A DNA stretch of 64,000 nt, taken from positions 97,424 through 161,423 of the forward strand of contig CAZCLY010000011.1 of NCBI GenBank assembly GCA_964499635.1, read 5' to 3'. The notes under the pieces are model-generated. The model was not told the DNA's origin, did no database searches, and saw nothing but the letters and a program-made list of their open reading frames with translations. A program made the translations under genes and the position numbers. This DNA is from an uncultured Gemmatimonadota bacterium. GTDB lineage: Bacteria; Gemmatimonadota; Gemmatimonadetes; Palauibacterales; Palauibacteraceae. Shown here piece after piece: positions 11,689 to 21,493 of the stretch. Each line of letters starts with the position of its first letter. The first letter of the stretch is position 1.

Positions 11689-12396
11689 ATGAGCGGGTCG
11701 AGGATCTCGATGCACAGCTCGCCACGCCGACGGGCCCTTCCGACGGTCGCGTGGCGCGGGGCCGGCGCGCTCGGGGCACTGCTCGGTCTGGCGCTCGCGG
11801 CCGGGCCCCTCCACGGGCAGGGCCCGGACTCCCCCGCGGCGGAGGACGCATGGTGGAGGGAGCTCGGGGGACCAGGCCCCGGGCTGCACGTGATCGAGGT
11901 GGACTCCACCTATCGGATCCGAGGCCACGACTACGACGACCTCCTGCGCGAGATGCGCCGCAAGGGCCCCGGAACCGATGAGATCGGCACCCGGCTCGGC
12001 GTGCACGTGGCCCGCTGGCGCTGGAGCTACGACTACTGGACGGGTGGCCGCAACGGACGTTGCCGTGTGACCGACGTGAGTGTCGCGCTGCGGTCGATCA
12101 TCGTTCTGCCGGAGTGGGTCCGGGAGCCGGGCGCATCGGCCGACCTCGTCCGGCGCTGGCCCCGCTTTCGGGACGCCCTCGTCGAACACGAGATGGGGCA
12201 CCGAAACCGGGCCCGCGCGCAGGGCGTCGTGCTCTGGCAGTCGCTTCTCGGCCTGCAGGCCGAGACGTGCGAGGAGCTCAGGACGCTGGTGTCGGAGACG
12301 GCCACGCGGGTGGTGTCGGAGGGCGAAGCGGCCCAGCTCGAATACGATCGCGACACCGCGCACGGGCTGAGGCAAGGCGCGGTCTGGCCTCCCTGA
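11689..12396 (+). CDS. DUF922-family predicted Zn-dependent protease, secreted
   Basis: YRIRG..DLLREMRRKGP, LPEW, HEMGH zincin motif, YDRDTAHG..QGA. Confidence 0.8.
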   Translation: MSGSRISMHSSPRRRALPTVAWRGAGALGALLGLALAAGPLHGQGPDSPAAEDAWWRELGGPGPGLHVIEVDSTYRIRGHDYDDLLREMRRKGPGTDEIGTRLGVHVARWRWSYDYWTGGRNGRCRVTDVSVALRSIIVLPEWVREPGASADLVRRWPRFRDALVEHEMGHRNRARAQGVVLWQSLLGLQAETCEELRTLVSETATRVVSEGEAAQLEYDRDTAHGLRQGAVWPP

Positions 12397-12512: not shown

Positions 12513-13913
12513 TCACGGGTCCCGGTTCAGGGCACGCCGCAACGCGGCGGCCAGCTGGTGGCGATCGATCCGTTCGAAGCCTCCCCCCCTCATGACCATG
12601 CCGAGCGCCCACATCGCCTGTTTCTGGACGTCGGGGTCTTCGTCGTCCAGGGCGTCCATCAGGGCATCGGCGGCCGCGGGATCCTCGATCATCCCGAGCG
12701 CCCAGGCCGCCTGGGAGCGTACATCGGCGTCCGCATCGCGCAGCGCATCGATGAGACCGGAGGTGGCGTCGCGGGACTCGATCATGCCCAGACCCCACGC
12801 CGCCTGTGCGCGCACCTTCGTGTCGGCGTCACGCAGACCGCCGAGCAGCGGGGCCACACCGTCCGCGTGCTCGATCATCCCGAGTCCCCAGGCCGCCTGC
12901 GCGCGCACGTCCGCGTCCTCGTCCCCCATGGCCCTCGCGAGGGGCGCGACCCCGTCCGGGTGCTCGATCATCCCCAGTCCCCACGCCGCCTGCGATCGCA
13001 CCTCGGCGTCGGTGTCGCCGATCGCCACTCCGAGGGCCGGCACGGCGTCGGCGTCGTCGATCATCCCGAGCGCCCAGGCCGCCTGGCTACGCGTCTTCCC
13101 ATCCGCATCCCCGCGCACCGCGCGCCCCAGCGCCTCGACGGCGTCGGGGCTCTCGATCATCCCGAGCGCCCACGCCGCCCGGGACCGGACCGGGGCGGTC
13201 CGATCGCGTCCCAGCACCCGAACGAGGGGAGCGACGGCCCGCGGGCTCTCGATCATCCCGAGCGCCATGGCGGCGTTCTCCCGCCCCACCGCATCCTCTC
13301 CCTCGAGCACGTCGATGAGGGGCTCGAGCACCTCGGTCCCCAGCTCCTCCAGGGCGATCGCGGCCTCACGGCCCGGCGAGCTCTCGTCCCAGCGTCCGTG
13401 GTTCCACCGGTTCCCCTGATTGCGGCACAGGCGGCCCTCCACCTCGGTCCCGTCCGTGAGCAGCGCGAGCAGCGGCTCGCGGGCCCGACGGACGTCGTCG
13501 GCCCGCATCCGGCCGAGGGCGCAGGCGGCCATGGCGCGATCGGTGGCGCTCGATGACCCGAGCTGGCGAATGAGCGCATCCGCGTCCTGCGCTGCGGCGG
13601 TGGGCCACGGGAGCTCGAGCGGGGGCACGACGATCGGCCCGGACGGCCCGGGAGGCGTCGGAGCCGGGGCCGGCGCGGGTCCCGCGTCGGGGTGGAGGAG
13701 GGTGGCCGGGGCGGGTGCTACGACCGGAGCGGGCCACGCCGCTGGGGCCGACGCCACACCGGGGGTGGCGGGAGGCGGACCGACGACGGGGGCGGGGGCC
13801 GGAGCCGGGGCGCCCGATATGGGTCGTTCCTGGGCCAGACCGGGCGCGAGAACACCGATCGTGCCCACGCACATGCCGGCGAATCCGATCCATGCGCTTC
13901 CGTTCCGATGCAT
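12513..13913 (-). CDS. Secreted HEAT-repeat (HEAT_2/PBS-lyase-like) protein with Pro/Ala-rich stalk
   Basis: Signal peptide ending GLAQ, P/A-rich linker, eight 31-32 aa repeats (xQAAW[AG]LGMIE) plus two degenerate ones; AGGAG RBS before ATG 13913. Confidence 0.9.
   Translation of the reverse strand: MHRNGSAWIGFAGMCVGTIGVLAPGLAQERPISGAPAPAPAPVVGPPPATPGVASAPAAWPAPVVAPAPATLLHPDAGPAPAPAPTPPGPSGPIVVPPLELPWPTAAAQDADALIRQLGSSSATDRAMAACALGRMRADDVRRAREPLLALLTDGTEVEGRLCRNQGNRWNHGRWDESSPGREAAIALEELGTEVLEPLIDVLEGEDAVGRENAAMALGMIESPRAVAPLVRVLGRDRTAPVRSRAAWALGMIESPDAVEALGRAVRGDADGKTRSQAAWALGMIDDADAVPALGVAIGDTDAEVRSQAAWGLGMIEHPDGVAPLARAMGDEDADVRAQAAWGLGMIEHADGVAPLLGGLRDADTKVRAQAAWGLGMIESRDATSGLIDALRDADADVRSQAAWALGMIEDPAAADALMDALDDEDPDVQKQAMWALGMVMRGGGFERIDRHQLAAALRRALNRDP
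12590..13290 (-). repeat. Coding tandem repeat with 93/96-bp period (HEAT units)
   Basis: TCGATCAT anchor at 12685, 12778, 12871, 12964, 13057, 13153 and 13249. Confidence 0.9.
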
Positions 13914-13933
13914 TTCCGTCTCCTGGGACCCCA

Positions 13934-13949
13934 TGGTAGAAAATTAGCA
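13934..13949. promoter_or_regulatory. Putative BlaI-family operator (degenerate)
   Basis: TGGTAG-AAAA-TTAGCA matches TGCTAA-N4-TTAGCA at 10 of 12 positions; 20 bp upstream of the HEAT gene start. Confidence 0.7.
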
Positions 13950-14040
13950 CTGCGTGCCCCGGAAAAAGCCCGACGCATCGGGCTCTCTCCCCACCCGCGG
14001 GGGCCGGCACGGCTGCCGACGCGCCGCGCCGGCCGCGGCC

Positions 14041-15969
14041 CTATCCGATCACCATCCCCAGCGCCCACATGGCCTGCTTGGCGACTTCCTCGCTCTCGTC
14101 CTCGAGCGCGTCGACGAGCGCGTCGGCCGCGGAACGGTCCTGGATCATGCCGAGCGCCCACGCGGCCTGACTCCGGACATGTGCGGACGCATCGGAGCGC
14201 AGGGCCACGATGAGTCCCTCGACAGCCGACGAGCTCTCGATCATGCCGAGCGCCCAGGCGGCCTGACTGCGGACGCTCTCCGAATCGTCGTCGAGGGCCA
14301 CCAGCAGCGGCTCGACCCCGTCGCGGCTCTCGATCATGCCGAGCGCCCACGCGGCCTGGCTGCGGACCTCGGCGTTCTCGTCCCGGATGGCGATGGTCAA
14401 CGCCGGCACGCCGTCGGGGCTCTCGATCATGCCGAGGGCCCAGGCGACCTTGCTGCGCACGCCAGCATCCGGGTCCTGGATCGCGGCCCCGAGCGGCTCG
14501 ACGGCGAGGGGCGACTCCATGGTCCCCAGAGTCTGGGCGGCCTGCCGGCGGAAATCGGCGCTCTCGTGGTGGAGGGCGCGGACCATGACTGCCACGAAGC
14601 GCTCATCGGTCGTGTCGGTCACGGCCGGTCGCGCGACTTCCTGCCACGGTGCCGCGTCCGGCCCGGCGGCGCTTGGCGGTGCGGCATGCGGTCCTGTCGC
14701 GACCTCGGGTCTGGGGCGGGGGTCGGTCACGATCCGGGGCACGGCGATCGACCGTGCGGCGGACAGCTCCTCGAGGTGCGAAGACCCGGTGTCCGACGGC
14801 GGCACGACGGATGGGATCGGTGGCTTCCCGGCGTCCTGCTCGGACCGGAGCCCGGTGGGGGCGGCCTGGAATGCGGCCAGCGGGAGCACCGCCGCGGTCA
14901 CGGCGATGCAGGCCACCAGCGAGCGGACGCGCCCCAGCCCTCTCCGGTCGCGCGCAGGATCGAGGATCGCGAGCAGCCGGCCCTCGAGCTCCGACGGCCG
15001 CGCCATCGACACGGCCGCGCGCGCCAGGCGTCGATCGCCGCGCGCGCGCGCGACGTCGAGCAGCAGCCGGGCGTAGTCGGCGCTCCGCGTCCCGGCGGTC
15101 AGCACCATGTCGTCACACGCCCGCTCGCGTTCGGCCCGCAGCCGCCTGGCACCGATCCAGGCCAGCGGGTTCATCCAGTGGACGGCGCGCGTCGCCTGTG
15201 CGAGCAGATGGACGAGGCAGTCGCGCCGCTTGACGTGCGCGAGCTCGTGGAGAGCCACGGCGCGCCGCCGCTCCGACGACCAGGCCAGCGCGTCGCACGG
15301 AAGGAGGAGGGCGGGCCGCAATATTCCCCACGCCATCGGCGTCCCCACCCACGGGCTCACGCGGACGCGCACCTCGCCGGGGATGCCGAGCGTCTCCTTC
15401 AGCTGCGCGATCGTGCGCTTCCACCCCGCGTCCTCGAGCGGGGCGGCCACGCGGCTCGTCCACCAGGCGGACACCACGCCCACCATGAGTCGCGTCAGGA
15501 AGAGGAGGGCGCCGGCCAGCCAGATGAGCGGCCCGAGCCGCCACACCGAACCGATGGAGGGGGCTACGGGCCGCACGGTAGTACTCACTCCGGGGGGTAA
15601 GGCGCCCGCGCCGGACCCGGATGCGATGGGCGCTTCGGACCGGCGACCGTCGGGCGCGACGGTGAGCGGTCGGGACGCCGTGGGGGCCGCGGCCGCGGGA
15701 GGAGCCACCTCGGGATCGCGCGTCGCGACCGGCCACCCCGGCACCGTCACGCGCCACGAGGGCAAGGTGCCGGCGAGCACGGGCAGGGCAAGGACCGCGG
15801 CGAACGCGAGCGTCCACACGTGGTGACGGACGGAGGCCGAGGAGCCGCGCAGCGCGAGGGTCGCGACCAGGGCCGCGAGCAGGAGAACGGCGCTCTTCAG
15901 CGCGACATCTGCCATGAAAGGGATCCAGGCGCCCGCGGCGCCGCTCAGCCACTCGGTCAGCACGGCCAT
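14041..15969 (-). CDS. BlaR1/MecR1-like M56 peptidase with C-terminal HEAT-repeat domain
   Basis: SASVRHHVW, PLIWLAG, TPMAWG..RP, HELAHVKRRD, HWMNPLAW, ERERACDD and LEGRLLAIL, then a TM segment, a Pro-rich linker and six HEAT repeats. Confidence 0.93.
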   Translation of the reverse strand: MAVLTEWLSGAAGAWIPFMADVALKSAVLLLAALVATLALRGSSASVRHHVWTLAFAAVLALPVLAGTLPSWRVTVPGWPVATRDPEVAPPAAAAPTASRPLTVAPDGRRSEAPIASGSGAGALPPGVSTTVRPVAPSIGSVWRLGPLIWLAGALLFLTRLMVGVVSAWWTSRVAAPLEDAGWKRTIAQLKETLGIPGEVRVRVSPWVGTPMAWGILRPALLLPCDALAWSSERRRAVALHELAHVKRRDCLVHLLAQATRAVHWMNPLAWIGARRLRAERERACDDMVLTAGTRSADYARLLLDVARARGDRRLARAAVSMARPSELEGRLLAILDPARDRRGLGRVRSLVACIAVTAAVLPLAAFQAAPTGLRSEQDAGKPPIPSVVPPSDTGSSHLEELSAARSIAVPRIVTDPRPRPEVATGPHAAPPSAAGPDAAPWQEVARPAVTDTTDERFVAVMVRALHHESADFRRQAAQTLGTMESPLAVEPLGAAIQDPDAGVRSKVAWALGMIESPDGVPALTIAIRDENAEVRSQAAWALGMIESRDGVEPLLVALDDDSESVRSQAAWALGMIESSSAVEGLIVALRSDASAHVRSQAAWALGMIQDRSAADALVDALEDESEEVAKQAMWALGMVIG

Positions 15970-16373
15970 GAGACGTTCTCCTCGGCTGCCTCTCGTTCGC
16001 GGGCGTCCTCGATGAGCTTCGACAGGCGCTCGAGCTCGGATTCGGAGAGTCGGGATGCGTCGTCGTCCAGGAGGGCGGCCATGGTCTGCTCGGCCGACCC
16101 GTTGAAGAAGGTGTCCACCAGGTGACGCAGGGCCGTCCGCTTCGCCGTGTCCTTGGCCAGCGCGGGCCGGTACACGTACCGCGGACCCTCCTGCTGGTGC
16201 GTGATGTGCCCCTTCTCCTCGAGGATCCGGAGGTGTGCCCGCACCGCCGAATAGCTGGGCGGATTGGGCAGATCCTCCTGGACCTCCGCGACGCTGGCCT
16301 CCCCACGCCGGAACAACACGTCCATGATCTGGCGCTCCCGCCGACTGAGCTTGTGTTGAAGCGGTTCCACCAT
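15957..16373 (-). CDS. BlaI/MecI/CopY family repressor
   Basis: LSRRERQIMDVL, PSYSAVRAHLRILEEKG, YVYRP and LVDTFFNGS. Confidence 0.95.
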   Translation of the reverse strand: MVEPLQHKLSRRERQIMDVLFRRGEASVAEVQEDLPNPPSYSAVRAHLRILEEKGHITHQQEGPRYVYRPALAKDTAKRTALRHLVDTFFNGSAEQTMAALLDDDASRLSESELERLSKLIEDAREREAAEENVSWPC

Positions 16374-16429
16374 TCGTCCCGTACCTCTCCCCGGTATGTT
16401 GCTCGGACACGCGCCGCGTGCGTTTTCGT

Positions 16430-16464
16430 TGCTAAGGGATTAGCACACTGCTAATTGTTTAGCA
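16430..16464. promoter_or_regulatory. Tandem palindromic operators TGCTAA-N4-TTAGCA (16430-16445 and 16449-16464)
   Basis: Two perfect AT-rich inverted repeats directly upstream of the repressor gene. Confidence 0.85.
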
Positions 16465-16484
16465 TCCATGGCGCGGCGTGTCAA
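16456..16484 (-). promoter_or_regulatory. Sigma70-type promoter for the blaI-like operon
   Basis: TTGACA-17 bp-TAAACA, preceded by TGn; the -10 lies inside the second operator. Confidence 0.65.
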
Positions 16485-16548: not shown

Positions 16549-17820
16549 ATGCGAGGAGCGCCGGGTCCCGGGTCTGTGTTCGCGGCGTCTGGCGCCGCCC
16601 CGACCGCCGTGTGCGCACTCCTCCTGGCCGCGGGGTGCCGGGCGGCCCCCGACGGCGGGCACGGCCCGACGCCGGTCGCGATCCGCAACGTGACCGTCAT
16701 CCCCATGACGCCGGGCGGGGAGACCCTGACCGCTGCGACCGTGGTCGTCGAGGGGGACCGCATCACCTCGATCGACGGAGTGCGGCCGGGGAGCGGGCCG
16801 CCATCGGCAGCCGCGGCCGACGAGGTCGGAGAGCGGATCCCGCCGGGCTCGGACGTCATCGATGGCACGGGCCGTTACCTCATCCCCGGGCTCATCGAGA
16901 TGCGCGCGCGCACCTCGAAGACGCGGGGCTCCTCGCTGGGGTTGTACGTGGCGAACGGGGTCACGACCCTTCGCGACGTGGAGGATGACGACGAGGAGCT
17001 CCCGCGCTGGCGGGACGAGATCGAGACCGGCGAGCGTCTCGGCCCGCGCCTGCTCCTCGGCGGACGGCGCCCCGAGTCCGGGGCCGACCTTCTCGAGCCC
17101 GGACGGGATGGGATCGAGCGCGTCCTCGAACCGACCCTCGACGGCCTCGACCGCGCGGAGCGCATGGGAGTGTGGCGGCGGTACGCGACGGCCGGAACCC
17201 GGGTCGTGCCGACCCTGGTGACGTTCACGCTGTCCACCTTCCCCGGTCGGGCGCGGCTCGAGGCGCTGGCGGCCGACTCGATCGGCGACCTCGACCCCCG
17301 GCGGCCCTACCTGTCGCGTTTCCTCGAGCTCGATTGGCGCGAGCAGGCGGACGGGGTGGACGAACGGCGGGCGGACATGTACCGGGGGGTGTGGTCCAAC
17401 CGGCTGCGCGACCTGCGCGAGATGCACGAGGCGGGCGTCGACATCCTCGCCGGCTCCGACGCCGGGGTGATCGGGATCTTCCCGGGCTGGTCGCTGCACG
17501 AGGAGCTGCGTCTGTTCGTGGACTCGCTCGGGATGACGCCCGCGGAGGCGCTCGCGCGCGCCACCCGCGAGTCGGCCGAGTTCCTCGGGATCGCCGACAG
17601 CGTGGGGTCGATCGCCGAAGGTCGGGTGGCCGACCTCGTGCTGCTCGACGGCGACCCGCTGGAGGACATCGGGAACACGCGGCGCATCGCCGCCGTGCTC
17701 CTGCGCGGGACGCCCTACCGGGAGGAGGACCTCGAGCGCATCCTCCAGCAGGTGCTCATGGCGCCCGATCAGCGCGCGAGCGACCGGCCGCGCGAGCCCC
17801 CGGCGGCCGACTCGACGTGA
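16549..17820 (+). CDS. Amidohydrolase-fold lipoprotein, probably catalytically degenerate
   Basis: Lipobox LAAGC; IDGTGRYLIPGLIEM, ANGVTTLRD, AGSDAG and GRVADLVLLDGDPLEDI. The HxH motif reads RAR. Confidence 0.8.
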   Translation: MRGAPGPGSVFAASGAAPTAVCALLLAAGCRAAPDGGHGPTPVAIRNVTVIPMTPGGETLTAATVVVEGDRITSIDGVRPGSGPPSAAAADEVGERIPPGSDVIDGTGRYLIPGLIEMRARTSKTRGSSLGLYVANGVTTLRDVEDDDEELPRWRDEIETGERLGPRLLLGGRRPESGADLLEPGRDGIERVLEPTLDGLDRAERMGVWRRYATAGTRVVPTLVTFTLSTFPGRARLEALAADSIGDLDPRRPYLSRFLELDWREQADGVDERRADMYRGVWSNRLRDLREMHEAGVDILAGSDAGVIGIFPGWSLHEELRLFVDSLGMTPAEALARATRESAEFLGIADSVGSIAEGRVADLVLLDGDPLEDIGNTRRIAAVLLRGTPYREEDLERILQQVLMAPDQRASDRPREPPAADST

Positions 17821-17871: not shown

Positions 17872-20800
17872 CTAACGCGACGCTTCCCATCGCCTCGCCA
17901 CGGCCTCGAGCGTCCTCTCGAGCGTCCGCACGGCTTCCATCGCCTGCGTCGTAGGCCGGACGTCCGCCGACTGCAGCACCTCGAGCAGGTAGAGGAGCTT
18001 GCCCTGCAGATCGACCACGGTCTCGCGATCGGCGGGCGTGTCGCGGATGCTTCCGTACAGGACATCGGCCGGTTCGGGCTCTCCCGACCCCCGGAGCGCG
18101 GTCAGCGCGGCGCGGCTCGACGCATCGAGTCCGGTGCGGGCCAGCGCCGCACCGATCGCTTCGCGGATCCCCTCCAGCCGCAGGTAGGCGTCGTAGCAGC
18201 GCCGCGAGTACTCGGTCTGGAGCGCGAGGTCCGGTTCGGAGATCGCCACCCGCGGGTCGAGCCGCACGTCGAGCGGCCGGTTCGAGACCTCGCCGTCGAC
18301 GGTGAGCCGCACCGTGTAGACGCCCGGTGGCACGTAAGGCCCGCGCGGCACGCTGGGGGTGTTCTCGAACGTCGCGGCGATCGGATACTGGCGGCGTGCC
18401 CCGGGCGGCGGCTCCAGACGGAGGTCCCACACGAAGCGGTGGTGCCCCGCCGTGGTCCCGAGCCGTTGCGGTGGGCGGACCCAGTACGTCGGGTGGGCCA
18501 GCGTCGTCGCGTCGACCGCCTCCGGCGTGTCCGCGCTCGAGTACGCGCGCACGACCTCGCCGTCGGTGTTCAGGATCCCGAGGGTGACCTCGCGCGCCGC
18601 GGCGGGGAGCACGTAGTCGAGGATGGCGCCGTCGGGCGGGTTCTCGCCGGTCGGCTCTTCGGGCGGGAGCGGGGTGTCGGAGAACGTGTTCCCGCGCACC
18701 CGGAGGGCCGGGGGAGGGGGGACGAGAACCGGCCCTCCCCTGGTGGCGGCCTCGACGGCCCACCGGAGCGGCGCGAGGTCGTCGAGGATCCAGATCGAGC
18801 GGCCGTGCGTCCCCACGACCAGGTCGTTCCGGTGGATCACCAGATCGCGGATGGACGTGGCCGGCATGTTCAGTCGCAGGGACGACCACGTGTCGCCGTC
18901 GTCGAGCGACACGTATACGCAGCGCTCCGTCCCCGCGAACAGCAGCCCCGGCCGTTCGGGGTCCTCGCGCACCACGTTCACCGGCCCGTCGCCCGGCAGC
19001 CCCGCGACGATGCGCGTCCACGAACGCCCGCCGTCGTGCGTCCGGTAGATGTGCGGACGCAGGTCGTCGCGCCGGATCGCGTTTACGGCCACGTAGGCGG
19101 TCGCCGCGTCGAAATGGCCCGCCTCGATCTGCGACACCTTGTCCCACGCCCGGAGCTCCGGTGGCGTGACGTCTTCCCACGTCCCGCCCCCATCGCGCGT
19201 CACGTGGACCAGACCGTCGTCCGTCCCCGCCCAGATCGTTCCGGCCTCGAGCGGCGAAGGGCCAACGGCGTAGATCACTCCGCGGCGGGGCATGTCGGCC
19301 AGCGCGGGCGTCCGGTAGTCGCCGACCGACGCCGGCACCTCCGGCCGCTCGCGCGACAGGTCGGGGCTGATGACCTCCCATTCTTGCCCGCCGGTCGTCG
19401 TCTTCCACAGGACGTTGGTGCCGAACAGGAGGATGGCGGGATCGGCGGGATGAAACAGGAGCGGCATGGTGCGCAGCATCCGGTATTCGCCCGAGCGGAG
19501 CGCCTCGGGCGCCACGTTCTGCGACTGGCCGGTGCGCCGGTCGAACCGCGTGACGCGCCCCCCGTACACGATGTCGGGGTCCATCGGATCCGGGGCCACG
19601 TAGGCGTATTCATCCGCCCCCACGCCCTCGAACTCTCGGAAGGTGATCTGCCCGCCGTTCCCGCGGCTCGCGATGGAGATCGCGCCGCTCTCCTGCTGCC
19701 CGCCGTACACGCGGTACGGGAACGCGTCGTCGGTCGCGACATGGTACAGCTGGGACGTCGGCTGGTTGTACCACGAGCTCCACGTGCGGCCGCCGTTCAC
19801 GGTGATCGTCGCCCCCTGGTCGGCGGCGAACAGCATGATGTCCGGGTGGAGCGGGTTGATCCAGATCCGGTGATAGTCATCGCCGCCCGGGGCGCCCTTG
19901 ATCGACGTCCAGGTCGCGCCGCCGTCGTCGGACCGGTAGGAGGCGATGTTTCCCACGAACACGATGTCGGCGTCCTCCGGGTGCACGCGGATCTCGCCGA
20001 AGTCGTCCCCGCGGCCCCACAGACGCGGATCGGTGGACACGAGCGACCAGCTCTCCCCGGCGTCGTCGCTCCTGTAGATGCCGCCGTTCCGGCCGGCGTC
20101 CACGGTGGCGTACATGCGTCGAGGGTCGCCCGGCGCGATCCCGATCCCGATCCGTCCCGGACCCTGCTCGGCGCCCGGCAGCCCGTCGCCGATCCGACGC
20201 CACGTGTCGCCCCGGTCGGTGGAGCGGAACAGCCCGCCGTTCCGTCCCGAGAAGGCCGCGTTCTCCCACGGGCCCTCGCGGTGGTCCCACATCGAGGCGT
20301 ACACGATCTCCGGGTCGGCCGGATCGAGCTCCACCTGGATGGCGCCGGTGTTCTCGTCGATGTACAGCACCCTGTCCCACGTGCGTCCGCCGTCGGTCGT
20401 CCGGAACACGCCACGCTGCTCGTTGGGACCGTACGGGTGGCCGAGCCCCGCCACGAACACCACGTCGGGATCGTCCGGGTCGACGACGAGTCGGGCCACC
20501 TGCTGGACGTCGGAGAGCCCCACGTGGGTCCACGTGTCGCCCCCATCGGTCGACTTGAAGATCCCATCGCCAACCGACAGGTCCGGCCGGTGGAGGCCCT
20601 CGCCGGTGCCCACGTAGACCACGTCCGGATGGGAGGGCGAGACGGCGAGATCGCCCACCGACCCCGTGGGCGCGTCGTCGAACAGCGGACGCCACGTGCG
20701 TCCGTAGTCATCGGTCTTCCACACCCCGCCGTTGTTGACGCCGACGAAGAACACGGCGGGTCGCGTCGGGATCCCGACCGCCCCCACCGTTCGCCCGGCG

Positions 20801-20922
20801 CGGAACGGCCCGATGAGCCGGTAGTGGAGTTCCCACGAGCCCGGAGGGGTCTGCGCGTGCAGGGGGGCCATGGCCCCCGGCCCGAGCAGCGCGAGCAGGA
20901 GAGCGGATCGAGCGGTATTCAT
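17872..20922 (-). CDS. Secreted BNR/VPS10-like multi-beta-propeller protein (putative glycosyl hydrolase)
   Basis: RLIGPFRAGR, repeated [ST]xDxGxTW Asp-boxes, GTHGRSIWILDD; signal peptide ending LHAQ. Confidence 0.9.
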   Translation of the reverse strand: MNTARSALLLALLGPGAMAPLHAQTPPGSWELHYRLIGPFRAGRTVGAVGIPTRPAVFFVGVNNGGVWKTDDYGRTWRPLFDDAPTGSVGDLAVSPSHPDVVYVGTGEGLHRPDLSVGDGIFKSTDGGDTWTHVGLSDVQQVARLVVDPDDPDVVFVAGLGHPYGPNEQRGVFRTTDGGRTWDRVLYIDENTGAIQVELDPADPEIVYASMWDHREGPWENAAFSGRNGGLFRSTDRGDTWRRIGDGLPGAEQGPGRIGIGIAPGDPRRMYATVDAGRNGGIYRSDDAGESWSLVSTDPRLWGRGDDFGEIRVHPEDADIVFVGNIASYRSDDGGATWTSIKGAPGGDDYHRIWINPLHPDIMLFAADQGATITVNGGRTWSSWYNQPTSQLYHVATDDAFPYRVYGGQQESGAISIASRGNGGQITFREFEGVGADEYAYVAPDPMDPDIVYGGRVTRFDRRTGQSQNVAPEALRSGEYRMLRTMPLLFHPADPAILLFGTNVLWKTTTGGQEWEVISPDLSRERPEVPASVGDYRTPALADMPRRGVIYAVGPSPLEAGTIWAGTDDGLVHVTRDGGGTWEDVTPPELRAWDKVSQIEAGHFDAATAYVAVNAIRRDDLRPHIYRTHDGGRSWTRIVAGLPGDGPVNVVREDPERPGLLFAGTERCVYVSLDDGDTWSSLRLNMPATSIRDLVIHRNDLVVGTHGRSIWILDDLAPLRWAVEAATRGGPVLVPPPPALRVRGNTFSDTPLPPEEPTGENPPDGAILDYVLPAAAREVTLGILNTDGEVVRAYSSADTPEAVDATTLAHPTYWVRPPQRLGTTAGHHRFVWDLRLEPPPGARRQYPIAATFENTPSVPRGPYVPPGVYTVRLTVDGEVSNRPLDVRLDPRVAISEPDLALQTEYSRRCYDAYLRLEGIREAIGAALARTGLDASSRAALTALRGSGEPEPADVLYGSIRDTPADRETVVDLQGKLLYLLEVLQSADVRPTTQAMEAVRTLERTLEAVARRWEASR

Positions 20923-21073
20923 GGTGTTCGGCACCCGGCGGGGGTCATGTGCGCGTGGACGGTCGCTCAAACGAGGGGTCGGTCCGCCGGCGCGCCAGAT
21001 CGACGGGGCAACGTGGAGCGCCGCTCCCGTCGCATATGCCGACGAGGGGGCCGAAGGCCTACACTGGAGGACC

Positions 21074-21493
21074 ATGGAGAGGCCCGGTGTGGAGCGCCTG
21101 CTCGAGTTCGGAATCTACGTCGAGGACGTGGAGCGGTCCGCCGCGTTCTACGAGCGGGTGCTCGGGCTCAAGCGACTGCTGTCGGATCGACGGCTGGTGG
21201 CGCTCGACGTGAATGAAACGGGCGTCCTCCTCATCTTCCAGCACGGCGCGTCCACCGAGCCGATCGATACCCCGTACGGCGTGCTGCCGCCACACGACGG
21301 AAACGGGCGCACGCACTTCGCGTTCGCCGTCCGCGAGGGCGAGCTGGAACGCTGGGAGGCGTGGCTCGGCGCCGAGGGGGTCGCGATCGAGAGCACCATG
21401 GACTGGGGGCGCGGGGGACGCAGCCTTTACTTTCGCGATCCGGACGGGCACCTGCTCGAGCTCGTCACCCCCGGGACGTGGGCGACGTACTGA
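21074..21493 (+). CDS. VOC/glyoxalase family protein
   Basis: IYVEDVERSAAFYERVLG, HFAF and RSLYFRDPDGHLLEL; GGAGG RBS. Confidence 0.92.
   Translation: MERPGVERLLEFGIYVEDVERSAAFYERVLGLKRLLSDRRLVALDVNETGVLLIFQHGASTEPIDTPYGVLPPHDGNGRTHFAFAVREGELERWEAWLGAEGVAIESTMDWGRGGRSLYFRDPDGHLLELVTPGTWATY

Follow-up and report, generated by a model that had tools for sequence, protein, structure and literature searches.

A BlaI–M56 protease locus with a HEAT-repeat sensor and a predicted exported HEAT-repeat paralogue in an uncultured Gemmatimonadota bacterium

Introduction

In the BlaI–BlaR1 and MecI–MecR1 systems of Staphylococcus aureus and Bacillus licheniformis, a repressor regulates its targets together with a membrane protease of the M56 family that senses beta-lactams. 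BlaR1 has an Nout–Cout topology: helices 2 and 3 are joined by an extracellular loop, and the sensor domain, which is related to class D beta-lactamases, also lies outside. A preprint (bioRxiv 10.64898/2026.08.03.742534) describes atypical BlaIR systems without a sensor domain, namely PvmSR of Pseudomonas aeruginosa and BlaIR of Mycobacterium tuberculosis and Mycobacterium abscessus. Here we analysed a 64,000-nucleotide stretch of DNA from an uncultured Gemmatimonadota bacterium (the window; contig C11:97424–161423 of its own genome, G000, which comprises 4,739,359 bp and is 96% complete). It carries a blaI gene, a gene for an M56 protease fused to HEAT repeats (the sensor) and a gene for a protein built largely of the same repeats (the HEAT-only protein).

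Similar to BlaI–BlaR1 and MecI–MecR1, this locus joins a PF03965 repressor gene to a membrane M56 gluzincin (HExxH, ExxxD) with a C-terminal sensor after the last transmembrane segment, predicted here to be extracytoplasmic. Palindromic operators lie in the divergent promoter region beside a hydrolase gene, and the output and the sensor domain alike are expected to bind the inducer. By contrast, the sensor here is a HEAT solenoid where those systems have a penicillin-binding fold, blaI precedes blaR1, the operator reads TGCTAA-N4-TTAGCA, and the main conserved output appears to be a secreted paralogue of the sensor domain rather than a beta-lactamase or PBP2a. The locus shares with the atypical BlaIR systems an M56 protease and a BlaI-family regulator that are not tied to beta-lactams; it differs from them, lacking as they do an extracytoplasmic sensor domain, in having a large and well-folded solenoid that is duplicated as a separate, predicted exported protein. 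We propose, with a probability of about one half, that the locus encodes a BlaR1-type switch gated by a ligand, and that its repressor controls hydrolases, exporters and a secreted paralogue that binds the ligand.

Results

A repressor, an M56–HEAT sensor and a HEAT-only protein are encoded on one strand

A sequence-only reading of this DNA had described three same-strand genes for a BlaI repressor, an M56–HEAT sensor and a HEAT-only protein. Pfam searches and open reading frames (ORFs) bore out all three at 12513–16373:

15957–16373, minus strand: blaI, 138 aa, BlaI/MecI/CopY-family winged-helix repressor (PF03965, E = 6.1e-27)
14041–15969, minus strand: sensor-protease gene, 642 aa (PF05569, E = 1.3e-34; HEAT_2, E = 7e-35)
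12513–13934, minus strand: HEAT-only gene, predicted exported product, 473 aa (HEAT_2, E = 7.6e-80; HEAT_PBS, E = 2.4e-41)

Translation of the sensor begins with the ATG at 15969, giving its gene an overlap of 13 nt with blaI. For the HEAT-only gene, the ATG at 13913 (M8), preceded by an AGGAGA at a distance of 5 nt, is a more likely start than 13934. Within its own genome, the closest relative of the HEAT-only protein is the HEAT part of the sensor, at 62% identity; this identity and the recurrence of the trio in many genomes argue that the layout is not a product of chance. The window has a G+C content of 72%, the closest named relatives in the locus search are metagenome-assembled genomes (MAGs) of Gemmatimonadota, and the sequencing runs containing the source DNA carry salt marsh metagenome labels.

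The sensor divides into three parts:

14863–15969, minus strand: membrane and gluzincin part, residues 1–369 (PF05569, profile match to 8exs_A, hydropathy, AlphaFold2)
14620–14862, minus strand: Pro-rich disordered stalk, residues 370–450 (AlphaFold2 predicted local distance difference test score (pLDDT) below 50 over residues 375–451)
14044–14619, minus strand: HEAT domain, residues 451–642, six 31-residue alphaRep-like repeats, each with VRSQAAWALGMIE

Peptidase_M56 (PF05569) matches sensor residues 22–336 with 120.1 bits, against a cut-off of 31. The protease motif HELAH occupies residues 241–245 (nt 15235–15249), and the complete gluzincin set is in place: HExxH, an Asp five residues after the second His, an ExxxD that reads E282RACD286, and a Tyr. 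H241, E242, H245, D250, E282, D286 and Y299 are invariant in all 12 aligned family members and correspond to the residues given for S. aureus BlaR1 (H201ExxH, D210, E242xxxD and Y261) in an excerpt of PMC9834060. A single-sequence phmmer search of the PDB returned no match for the M56 part; the family profile matched the S. aureus BlaR1 structure 8exs_A over BlaR1 residues 72–302 (E = 5.8e-12). AlphaFold2 modelled the protease part with a pLDDT of about 90.

The blaI product scores 94.7 bits against PF03965 (cut-off 22.6). Here too, single-sequence phmmer found nothing in the PDB, and a profile of 16 orthologues aligned over the full length to MecI (1sd6_A, residues 3–122, E = 1.9e-6) and BlaI (1sd4_A, E = 6.8e-6). 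The window BlaI is 58–82% identical to orthologues in other phyla. By their motifs and profile matches, the protease and the repressor are both intact members of their families.

Hydropathy predicts transmembrane segments in the sensor at residues 22–40, 51–69, 148–166 and 351–369. The protease loop holds 31 Lys and Arg residues, and the tail is acidic, with 21 Lys and Arg versus 41 Asp and Glu. Since the homologous BlaR1 is Nout–Cout, the HEAT domain should be periplasmic and the protease loop cytoplasmic. The four hydrophobic segments, the charge distribution and the homology to BlaR1 (8exs_A) fit a HEAT domain that is predicted to be extracytoplasmic, as the proposed sensor role had presupposed.

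Both solenoids carry the same fixed residues on the predicted binding face

HEAT_2, HEAT_PBS and HEAT_EZ match the sensor from about residue 450. Its repeats start at residues 466, 497, 528, 559, 591 and 622, a period of 31–32 residues, and the HEAT-only protein has ten repeats of the same type, starting at 125, 180, 210, 242, 274, 305, 336, 367, 398 and 429. The repeat core in both is VR(S/A)QAAWALGMIE with a period of 31 residues. The last repeat is nearly identical in the two proteins, AADAL(V/M)DAL(E/D)DE..V.KQAMWALGMV, and both have Pro/Ala-rich stretches that AlphaFold2 left disordered, the one in the HEAT-only protein covering residues 1–112 (pLDDT below 50). The sensor HEAT domain and HEAT-only residues 113–473 were modelled with a pLDDT of about 98. 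The sequence-only reading therefore stood on the number and kinship of the repeats, on the shared terminal repeat and on the stalks; its placing of an alpha-solenoid where BlaR1 has the penicillin-binding domain was upheld by Pfam, by AlphaFold2 and by the profile match to BlaR1.

The repeats are of the HEAT_PBS/alphaRep type, with PF03130 and PF13646 matches, the 31-residue period and, by Foldseek, an alphaRep fold. Their best relatives of solved structure are artificial alphaRep binders (profile E down to 6.7e-126), and alphaRep chains were the best Foldseek matches of the HEAT-only model (template modelling (TM) score 0.86–0.91, 2.1–2.7 Å). The 31-residue repeat D.D..VR..AA.ALG.I is common to the proteins here, to alphaRep and to its natural parents, MTH187 and PBS-lyase HEAT-like repeats such as those of CpcE/F, NblB and YibA. 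There were weak NCBIfam matches to CpcE, NblB and the YibA-like PRK09687; scores of 79 bits for CpcE (cut-off 330) and 42–50 for NblB (cut-off 300) indicate similarity at the level of the repeat only, not a phycobilin lyase. Unlike the cytoplasmic lyase subunits, the proteins here are predicted to be exported or membrane-tethered.

In alphaRep, positions 18, 19, 22, 23, 26 and 30 of the repeat are variable and lie on the concave, target-binding face, according to an excerpt of PMC3754942. Whereas all six vary in alphaRep and its natural parents, positions 23, 26 and 30 here hold an unchanging Q, W and M in almost all repeats of both proteins; in the printed alignment, it is precisely at the (S/E)Q, W and M of the family of sensors and HEAT-only proteins that the alphaRep chain is variable. 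These residues are conserved across phyla in sensors and HEAT-only proteins alike. The binding ladder of W and M residues suggested earlier fits this picture, as the residues sit at the concave variable positions given in that excerpt. Importin-alpha and armadillo proteins, which were among the Foldseek matches, likewise carry a repeated ladder of aromatic and amide residues on a concave solenoid face. Such ladders bind extended peptides. Importin-alpha and armadillo repeats have three helices each, and with a TM score of about 0.4 and 14–18% identity we claim no homology to them. The Q, W and M are identical from repeat to repeat and conserved across phyla; a concave stripe of them, six or ten units long, suggests a ligand that is itself repetitive or extended.

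The same regularity would suit solenoids whose target is not a foreign compound but a periodic polymer of the envelope, or envelope proteins in an unfolded state. The locus would then respond to envelope stress or serve remodelling, and the HEAT-only protein would be its structural or chaperone-like effector. The identical Q, W and M at every repeat of both proteins across phyla would match a repetitive ligand of this kind, and both window solenoids are mounted on stalks of about 80 residues, but the stalk is absent from many HEAT-only orthologues and the other predicted targets, hydrolases and MacB-type exporters, look more like detoxification. We regard this explanation as improbable.

The HEAT-only protein, an old paralogue, carries a separate cap

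Read from its N terminus, the HEAT-only protein has a signal-like segment, then a Pro/Ala stalk that reaches residue 112, a cap with a cysteine-bearing loop and the repeats, which run to the C terminus:

13290–13598, minus strand: HEAT-only Cys-loop N-cap, residues 113–215

Its single hydrophobic segment is N-terminal (residues 16–34), and a hydropathy heuristic placed such a segment at the N terminus of 17 of 18 neighbouring HEAT-only proteins. We infer that the protein is exported, a prediction that suits the two invariant cysteines of the cap: C138, C170 and P187-GREAA192 are conserved in 20 of 20 orthologues. The window's sensor has no counterpart of this N-cap. In database searches the N-cap family comprised 543 representative clusters at E ≤1e-10 and 3881 at ≤0.001; the cap mostly comes right after the N-terminal segment, and in some proteins it lies inside chains of 600–800 residues, the size of M56–HEAT sensors.

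Descent was examined with a tree of 32 C-terminal tails from 16 loci; L081 and L085 diverge too far and were not included. Resolution is poor, with 17 of 29 inner branches open and the bootstrap not settled. Only in L063 does a sensor pair with its own neighbour, weakly (82/73), and the window's HEAT-only tail (WIN_H) is sister to that of an Acidobacteriota protein, L035_H (97/92). The sensor/HEAT-only label needs 5 changes on the tree, versus a mean of 11 when shuffled, and none of 500 shuffles gave as few. We therefore rejected recent duplication or concerted evolution: tails do not pair by locus. The HEAT-only protein had been read as a soluble copy of the sensor domain, and within-locus duplication had been put forward for testing; it is neither a plain soluble copy nor a within-locus duplicate, because its tail groups with HEAT-only proteins of other phyla instead of with its own neighbour, and because it has a distinct N-cap with two invariant cysteines. 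Tails and cap together mark it as an old paralogue of the sensor domain rather than a fresh copy.

A shared binding surface could also mean that the two solenoids bind each other. The HEAT-only protein would then be a periplasmic partner of the sensor, docking face to face through the W/M stripe and holding the protease off or resetting it after induction, much like a periplasmic repeat-protein inhibitor of a membrane sensor. On the concave face, sensor and HEAT-only protein do have the same residues, binding between alphaRep proteins by way of their concave faces is reported (in the excerpt of PMC3754942), and the gene pair is conserved and, judging from predicted operators, co-regulated. Yet there are also HEAT-only genes that lie away from any sensor gene and keep the operator, and the distinct Cys-loop cap suggests a function of its own. 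A complex prediction for the sensor HEAT domain with the HEAT-only protein gave 0.56, versus 0.44 for a control, and speaks neither for nor against binding. We consider such a partnership unlikely, though less so than the other alternatives.

A predicted operator is shared by blaI, the HEAT-only gene and further candidate targets

We found two perfect palindromes in tandem upstream of blaI, as expected in silico of an autoregulated BlaI, and a related site in front of the HEAT-only gene, behind a hairpin:

16430–16445 and 16449–16464: tandem perfect palindromes TGCTAA-N4-TTAGCA, 19 nt apart start to start, between blaI and the divergent amidohydrolase gene
13961–13990, minus strand: terminator-like hairpin with a U run, directly 3' of the sensor gene (−23.6 kcal/mol, z −2.4)
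13934–13949: operator-like site TGCTAATTTTCTACCA (minus-strand reading), just upstream of the HEAT-only gene

The perfect palindrome occurs only three times in the 4,739,359-bp genome, and sites with at most two mismatches occur nine times, TGCTAATTTTCTACCA being one of the nine. The third perfect copy, on contig C12, lies 47 nt upstream of a gene whose 805-residue product is a duplicated MacB_PCD/FtsX permease. When the window's genome was scored with a weight matrix made from 84 operator sites, all from other genomes, the blaI site came out on top, the HEAT-only site second (24.8) and the C12 permease site third. The HEAT-only upstream site is kept in a genome of the same genus, G004. The hairpin rests on its RNA fold and its conservation, as a simple terminator scan did not list 13961–13990. 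TGCTAAT is a candidate, unconfirmed, for an extended −10 element.

Because the HEAT-only gene has a BlaI-type operator of its own, its control by the repressor, which had been postulated, is well supported in silico. The postulate that the HEAT-only protein is the regulated output survives in part: the operator favours it, and the protein is not the sole predicted output, since an amidohydrolase, MacB/FtsX permeases and hydrolases are predicted targets as well. The first of these is encoded next to blaI:

16549–17820, plus strand: amidohydrolase-family gene, 423 aa, lipoprotein-like N terminus (..LLLAAGC); Amidohydro_1 matches the C-terminal part only (E = 4.3e-15)

This divergent gene is a candidate regulon member. 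Its product is about 36% identical to an amidohydrolase of G004, whose gene also has tandem operators upstream, on another contig. In G005, also of the same genus, a tandem pair lies between blaI-blaR1 and a divergent operon for HlyD, an ABC ATPase and MacB/FtsX, a perfect site precedes the gene for an 814-residue MacB/FtsX permease, and a further operator pair precedes an alpha/beta hydrolase gene. Operator-linked MacB/FtsX permeases are those at G000:C12, G005:C412, L044 and L037. In L069, a PF00144 serine hydrolase gene begins 6 nt after the sensor gene.

MacB/FtsX permease genes numbered 12 in 9 of the 37 loci with a fused gene (described below). Adjacency to such permeases was dropped as evidence and only operator-linked ones were counted. 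The genome's MacB_PCD matches fall mostly two to an open frame of about 800–1000 residues, implying about 75 duplicated MacB/FtsX permeases, several of them in arrays (for example, C2:275142–303018).

Other M56 genes of the genome, at C6:222533–223327 and C17:42183–42752, are flanked by related but distinct palindromes of the CGCGAA-N4-TTAGCG and TGTTGC/CAACA types (G000:C6:221740 and 223843; G000:C17:41225 and 41244). This pattern suggests an operator code specific to each of the paralogous BlaI proteins. Two further open frames, weakly similar to the HEAT-only protein (E 1e-4 to 1e-5) in their HEAT repeats, lie at G000:C6:56866–58817 on the plus strand, about 2 kb from an M56 gene at C6:60785–61354 on the minus strand, and may represent a second, more divergent pairing of M56 and HEAT.

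The module recurs across phyla

A search with the sensor HEAT domain returned 1704 proteins at E ≤0.001 among 8000 scored, and 104 of the 120 best matches listed also carry the M56 domain (PF05569). Several matches are named by JGI as a HEAT repeat protein joined to a beta-lactamase-regulating signal transducer; the M56–HEAT fusion has thus already been named by automatic annotation. Scanning species-representative genomes gave 62 loci, of which 37 (the window and 36 others) have the fused gene. These 37 span Gemmatimonadota, Acidobacteriota and MAGs labelled Rhodothermales, and the M56–HEAT module is common in soil and marine bacteria.

A called blaI lies directly upstream of the fused gene in 29 of the 37 loci. 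The next gene is a same-strand HEAT-only gene in 18 of the 32 with a called downstream gene, and in 20 of 32 when the ORF-level matches in L041 and L088 are included, so the expected synteny in relatives was found. At least one operator stands upstream of blaI in 30 of 37. Related loci totalling 843 kb contain 92 sites with at most two mismatches; on our reading of the rows, nearly all those in the 37 fused loci lie either upstream of blaI or 49–103 nt after the sensor stop codon. The latter position is occupied in 16 of 37 loci, and all 16 show the same succession: stop codon, GC hairpin with a T run, about 12 nt, operator, ribosome-binding site, gene. That gene is a HEAT-only gene in 13 and a MacB/FtsX permease gene in L044 and L037; L059 ends at a contig edge. 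Counted by pairs, an operator precedes the HEAT-only gene in 13 of 18 syntenic pairs, in both Gemmatimonadota and Acidobacteriota. Among 17 further HEAT-only loci, truncated or without an adjacent sensor, 11 have an operator at the 5' end of the gene.

This conservation bears on whether the locus signals at all. The palindromes might belong to another regulator, the HEAT-only gene might be read through from blaR1, and the HEAT fusion might be an inert appendage. A sigma-70 scan of the region found no canonical promoter, as read-through would predict, but conservation of the catalytic residues, the operator, the hairpin and the order of the genes extends over Gemmatimonadota, Acidobacteriota and genomes labelled Rhodothermales, which implies selection on the layout. 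We hold the absence of any signalling role to be highly improbable.

Only 3 of 24 other genomes of the same genus (G001, G004 and G005) gave strong HEAT-only matches, so the distribution of the module is patchy. One full trio, in L058, comes from a MAG labelled Candidatus Rariloculaceae, a gammaproteobacterial family. Together with the Acidobacteriota sister of the window's HEAT-only tail, these observations hint at horizontal spread.

Other genes lie nearby. Convergent with the HEAT-only gene is a gene for a DUF922 protein with a HEMGH motif (11689–12396, plus strand, E = 1.9e-32); a DUF922-family neighbour also follows the module in one other locus, and no operator was seen there. Two Sortilin-Vps10/BNR-repeat proteins, one of 1067 aa (window 17872–21075, minus strand) and one of 1049 aa (L013, G000:C12, 5709–8858, plus strand), are encoded within a few kb of the genome's two operator-bearing regions, which may be coincidence.

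Discussion

We favour a ligand-gated switch that would work as follows. In the resting state, a BlaI dimer would repress blaI-blaR1, the divergent amidohydrolase gene, the HEAT-only gene and the MacB/FtsX permease gene on another contig; the HEAT-only gene would be transcribed from its own promoter behind the terminator. The sensor solenoid, on its stalk of about 80 residues, would bind an extracytoplasmic ligand along the concave Q/W/M stripe, and binding would activate the cytoplasmic protease, lead to cleavage of BlaI and derepress the regulon. The induced ten-repeat HEAT-only protein would be exported, bind the same ligand through the same stripe, sequester it and so damp the signal, while hydrolases and MacB-type exporters would remove the ligand. 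Sensor and BlaI would in this way form a two-protein proteolytic relay; the earlier label of a one-component system does not apply.

Several points weigh against this proposal. Its ligand is a guess, the best one being an extended, peptide-like or otherwise periodic molecule such as a peptide antibiotic. The sensor scores 85 bits against NCBIfam blaR1_generic, so far under the cut-off of 400 that it is not a BlaR1 equivalog; MecR1 gives 24 bits (cut-off 1200), and the C-terminal 190 residues are HEAT repeats, with the penicillin-binding domain of BlaR1 proper absent. In the window BlaI family, the MecI cleavage site N101–F102 aligns to an invariant L101–L102 within AALLDD. AlphaFold2 of the full sensor gives no confident contact between the extracellular loop (residues 83–139) and the solenoid, so the pseudo-ligand mechanism of extracellular loop 1 (EL1) in S. 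aureus BlaR1 is not transferable. At the DNA level, the window's HEAT-only site has two mismatches to the palindrome, 5 of 18 syntenic pairs (L058, L060, L063, L081 and L085) have no site at two mismatches or fewer, and the sigma-70 scan mentioned above gave no promoter. Among the proposed targets, the window amidohydrolase has no HxH motif, reading PGLIEMRAR where its G004 homologue has PGLVDAHVH; with its metal site seemingly lost, it may be a non-catalytic binding protein. The genome also gives 150 MacB_PCD domain matches, so mere adjacency of a permease means little.

Within the few keyword combinations tried (BlaR1, BlaI, M56, HEAT repeat, Acidobacteria, Gemmatimonadetes), literature searches gave, among the papers listed, none on this layout, a HEAT-type sensor or a HEAT-only output. 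New here are the TGCTAA-N4-TTAGCA operator, the HEAT-only upstream site after the hairpin and the recurrence of this layout across loci. A broader view, which we offer tentatively and hold to be less likely than not, is that a natural alphaRep-like solenoid serves in several phyla as a modular periplasmic receptor on a BlaR1-type protease, with a secreted, longer copy of the receptor surface as the conserved output of a bacterial 'soluble decoy receptor' circuit. In that view, each repeat of the uniform Q/W/M stripe would recognise one unit of a repetitive ligand, be it an extended peptide or a glycan strand of the envelope.

Almost all that is known of BlaR1-type receptors concerns beta-lactam sensing, and here the same protease and repressor chassis carries a different and very regular binding domain. 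Its operator is sharp enough for the regulon to be read from sequence alone. A natural solenoid with fixed binding-face residues and a regulated secreted version could interest designers of repeat-protein binders and biosensors, and the module gives a way of testing what these phyla, abundant in soil and sediment, sense at the envelope.

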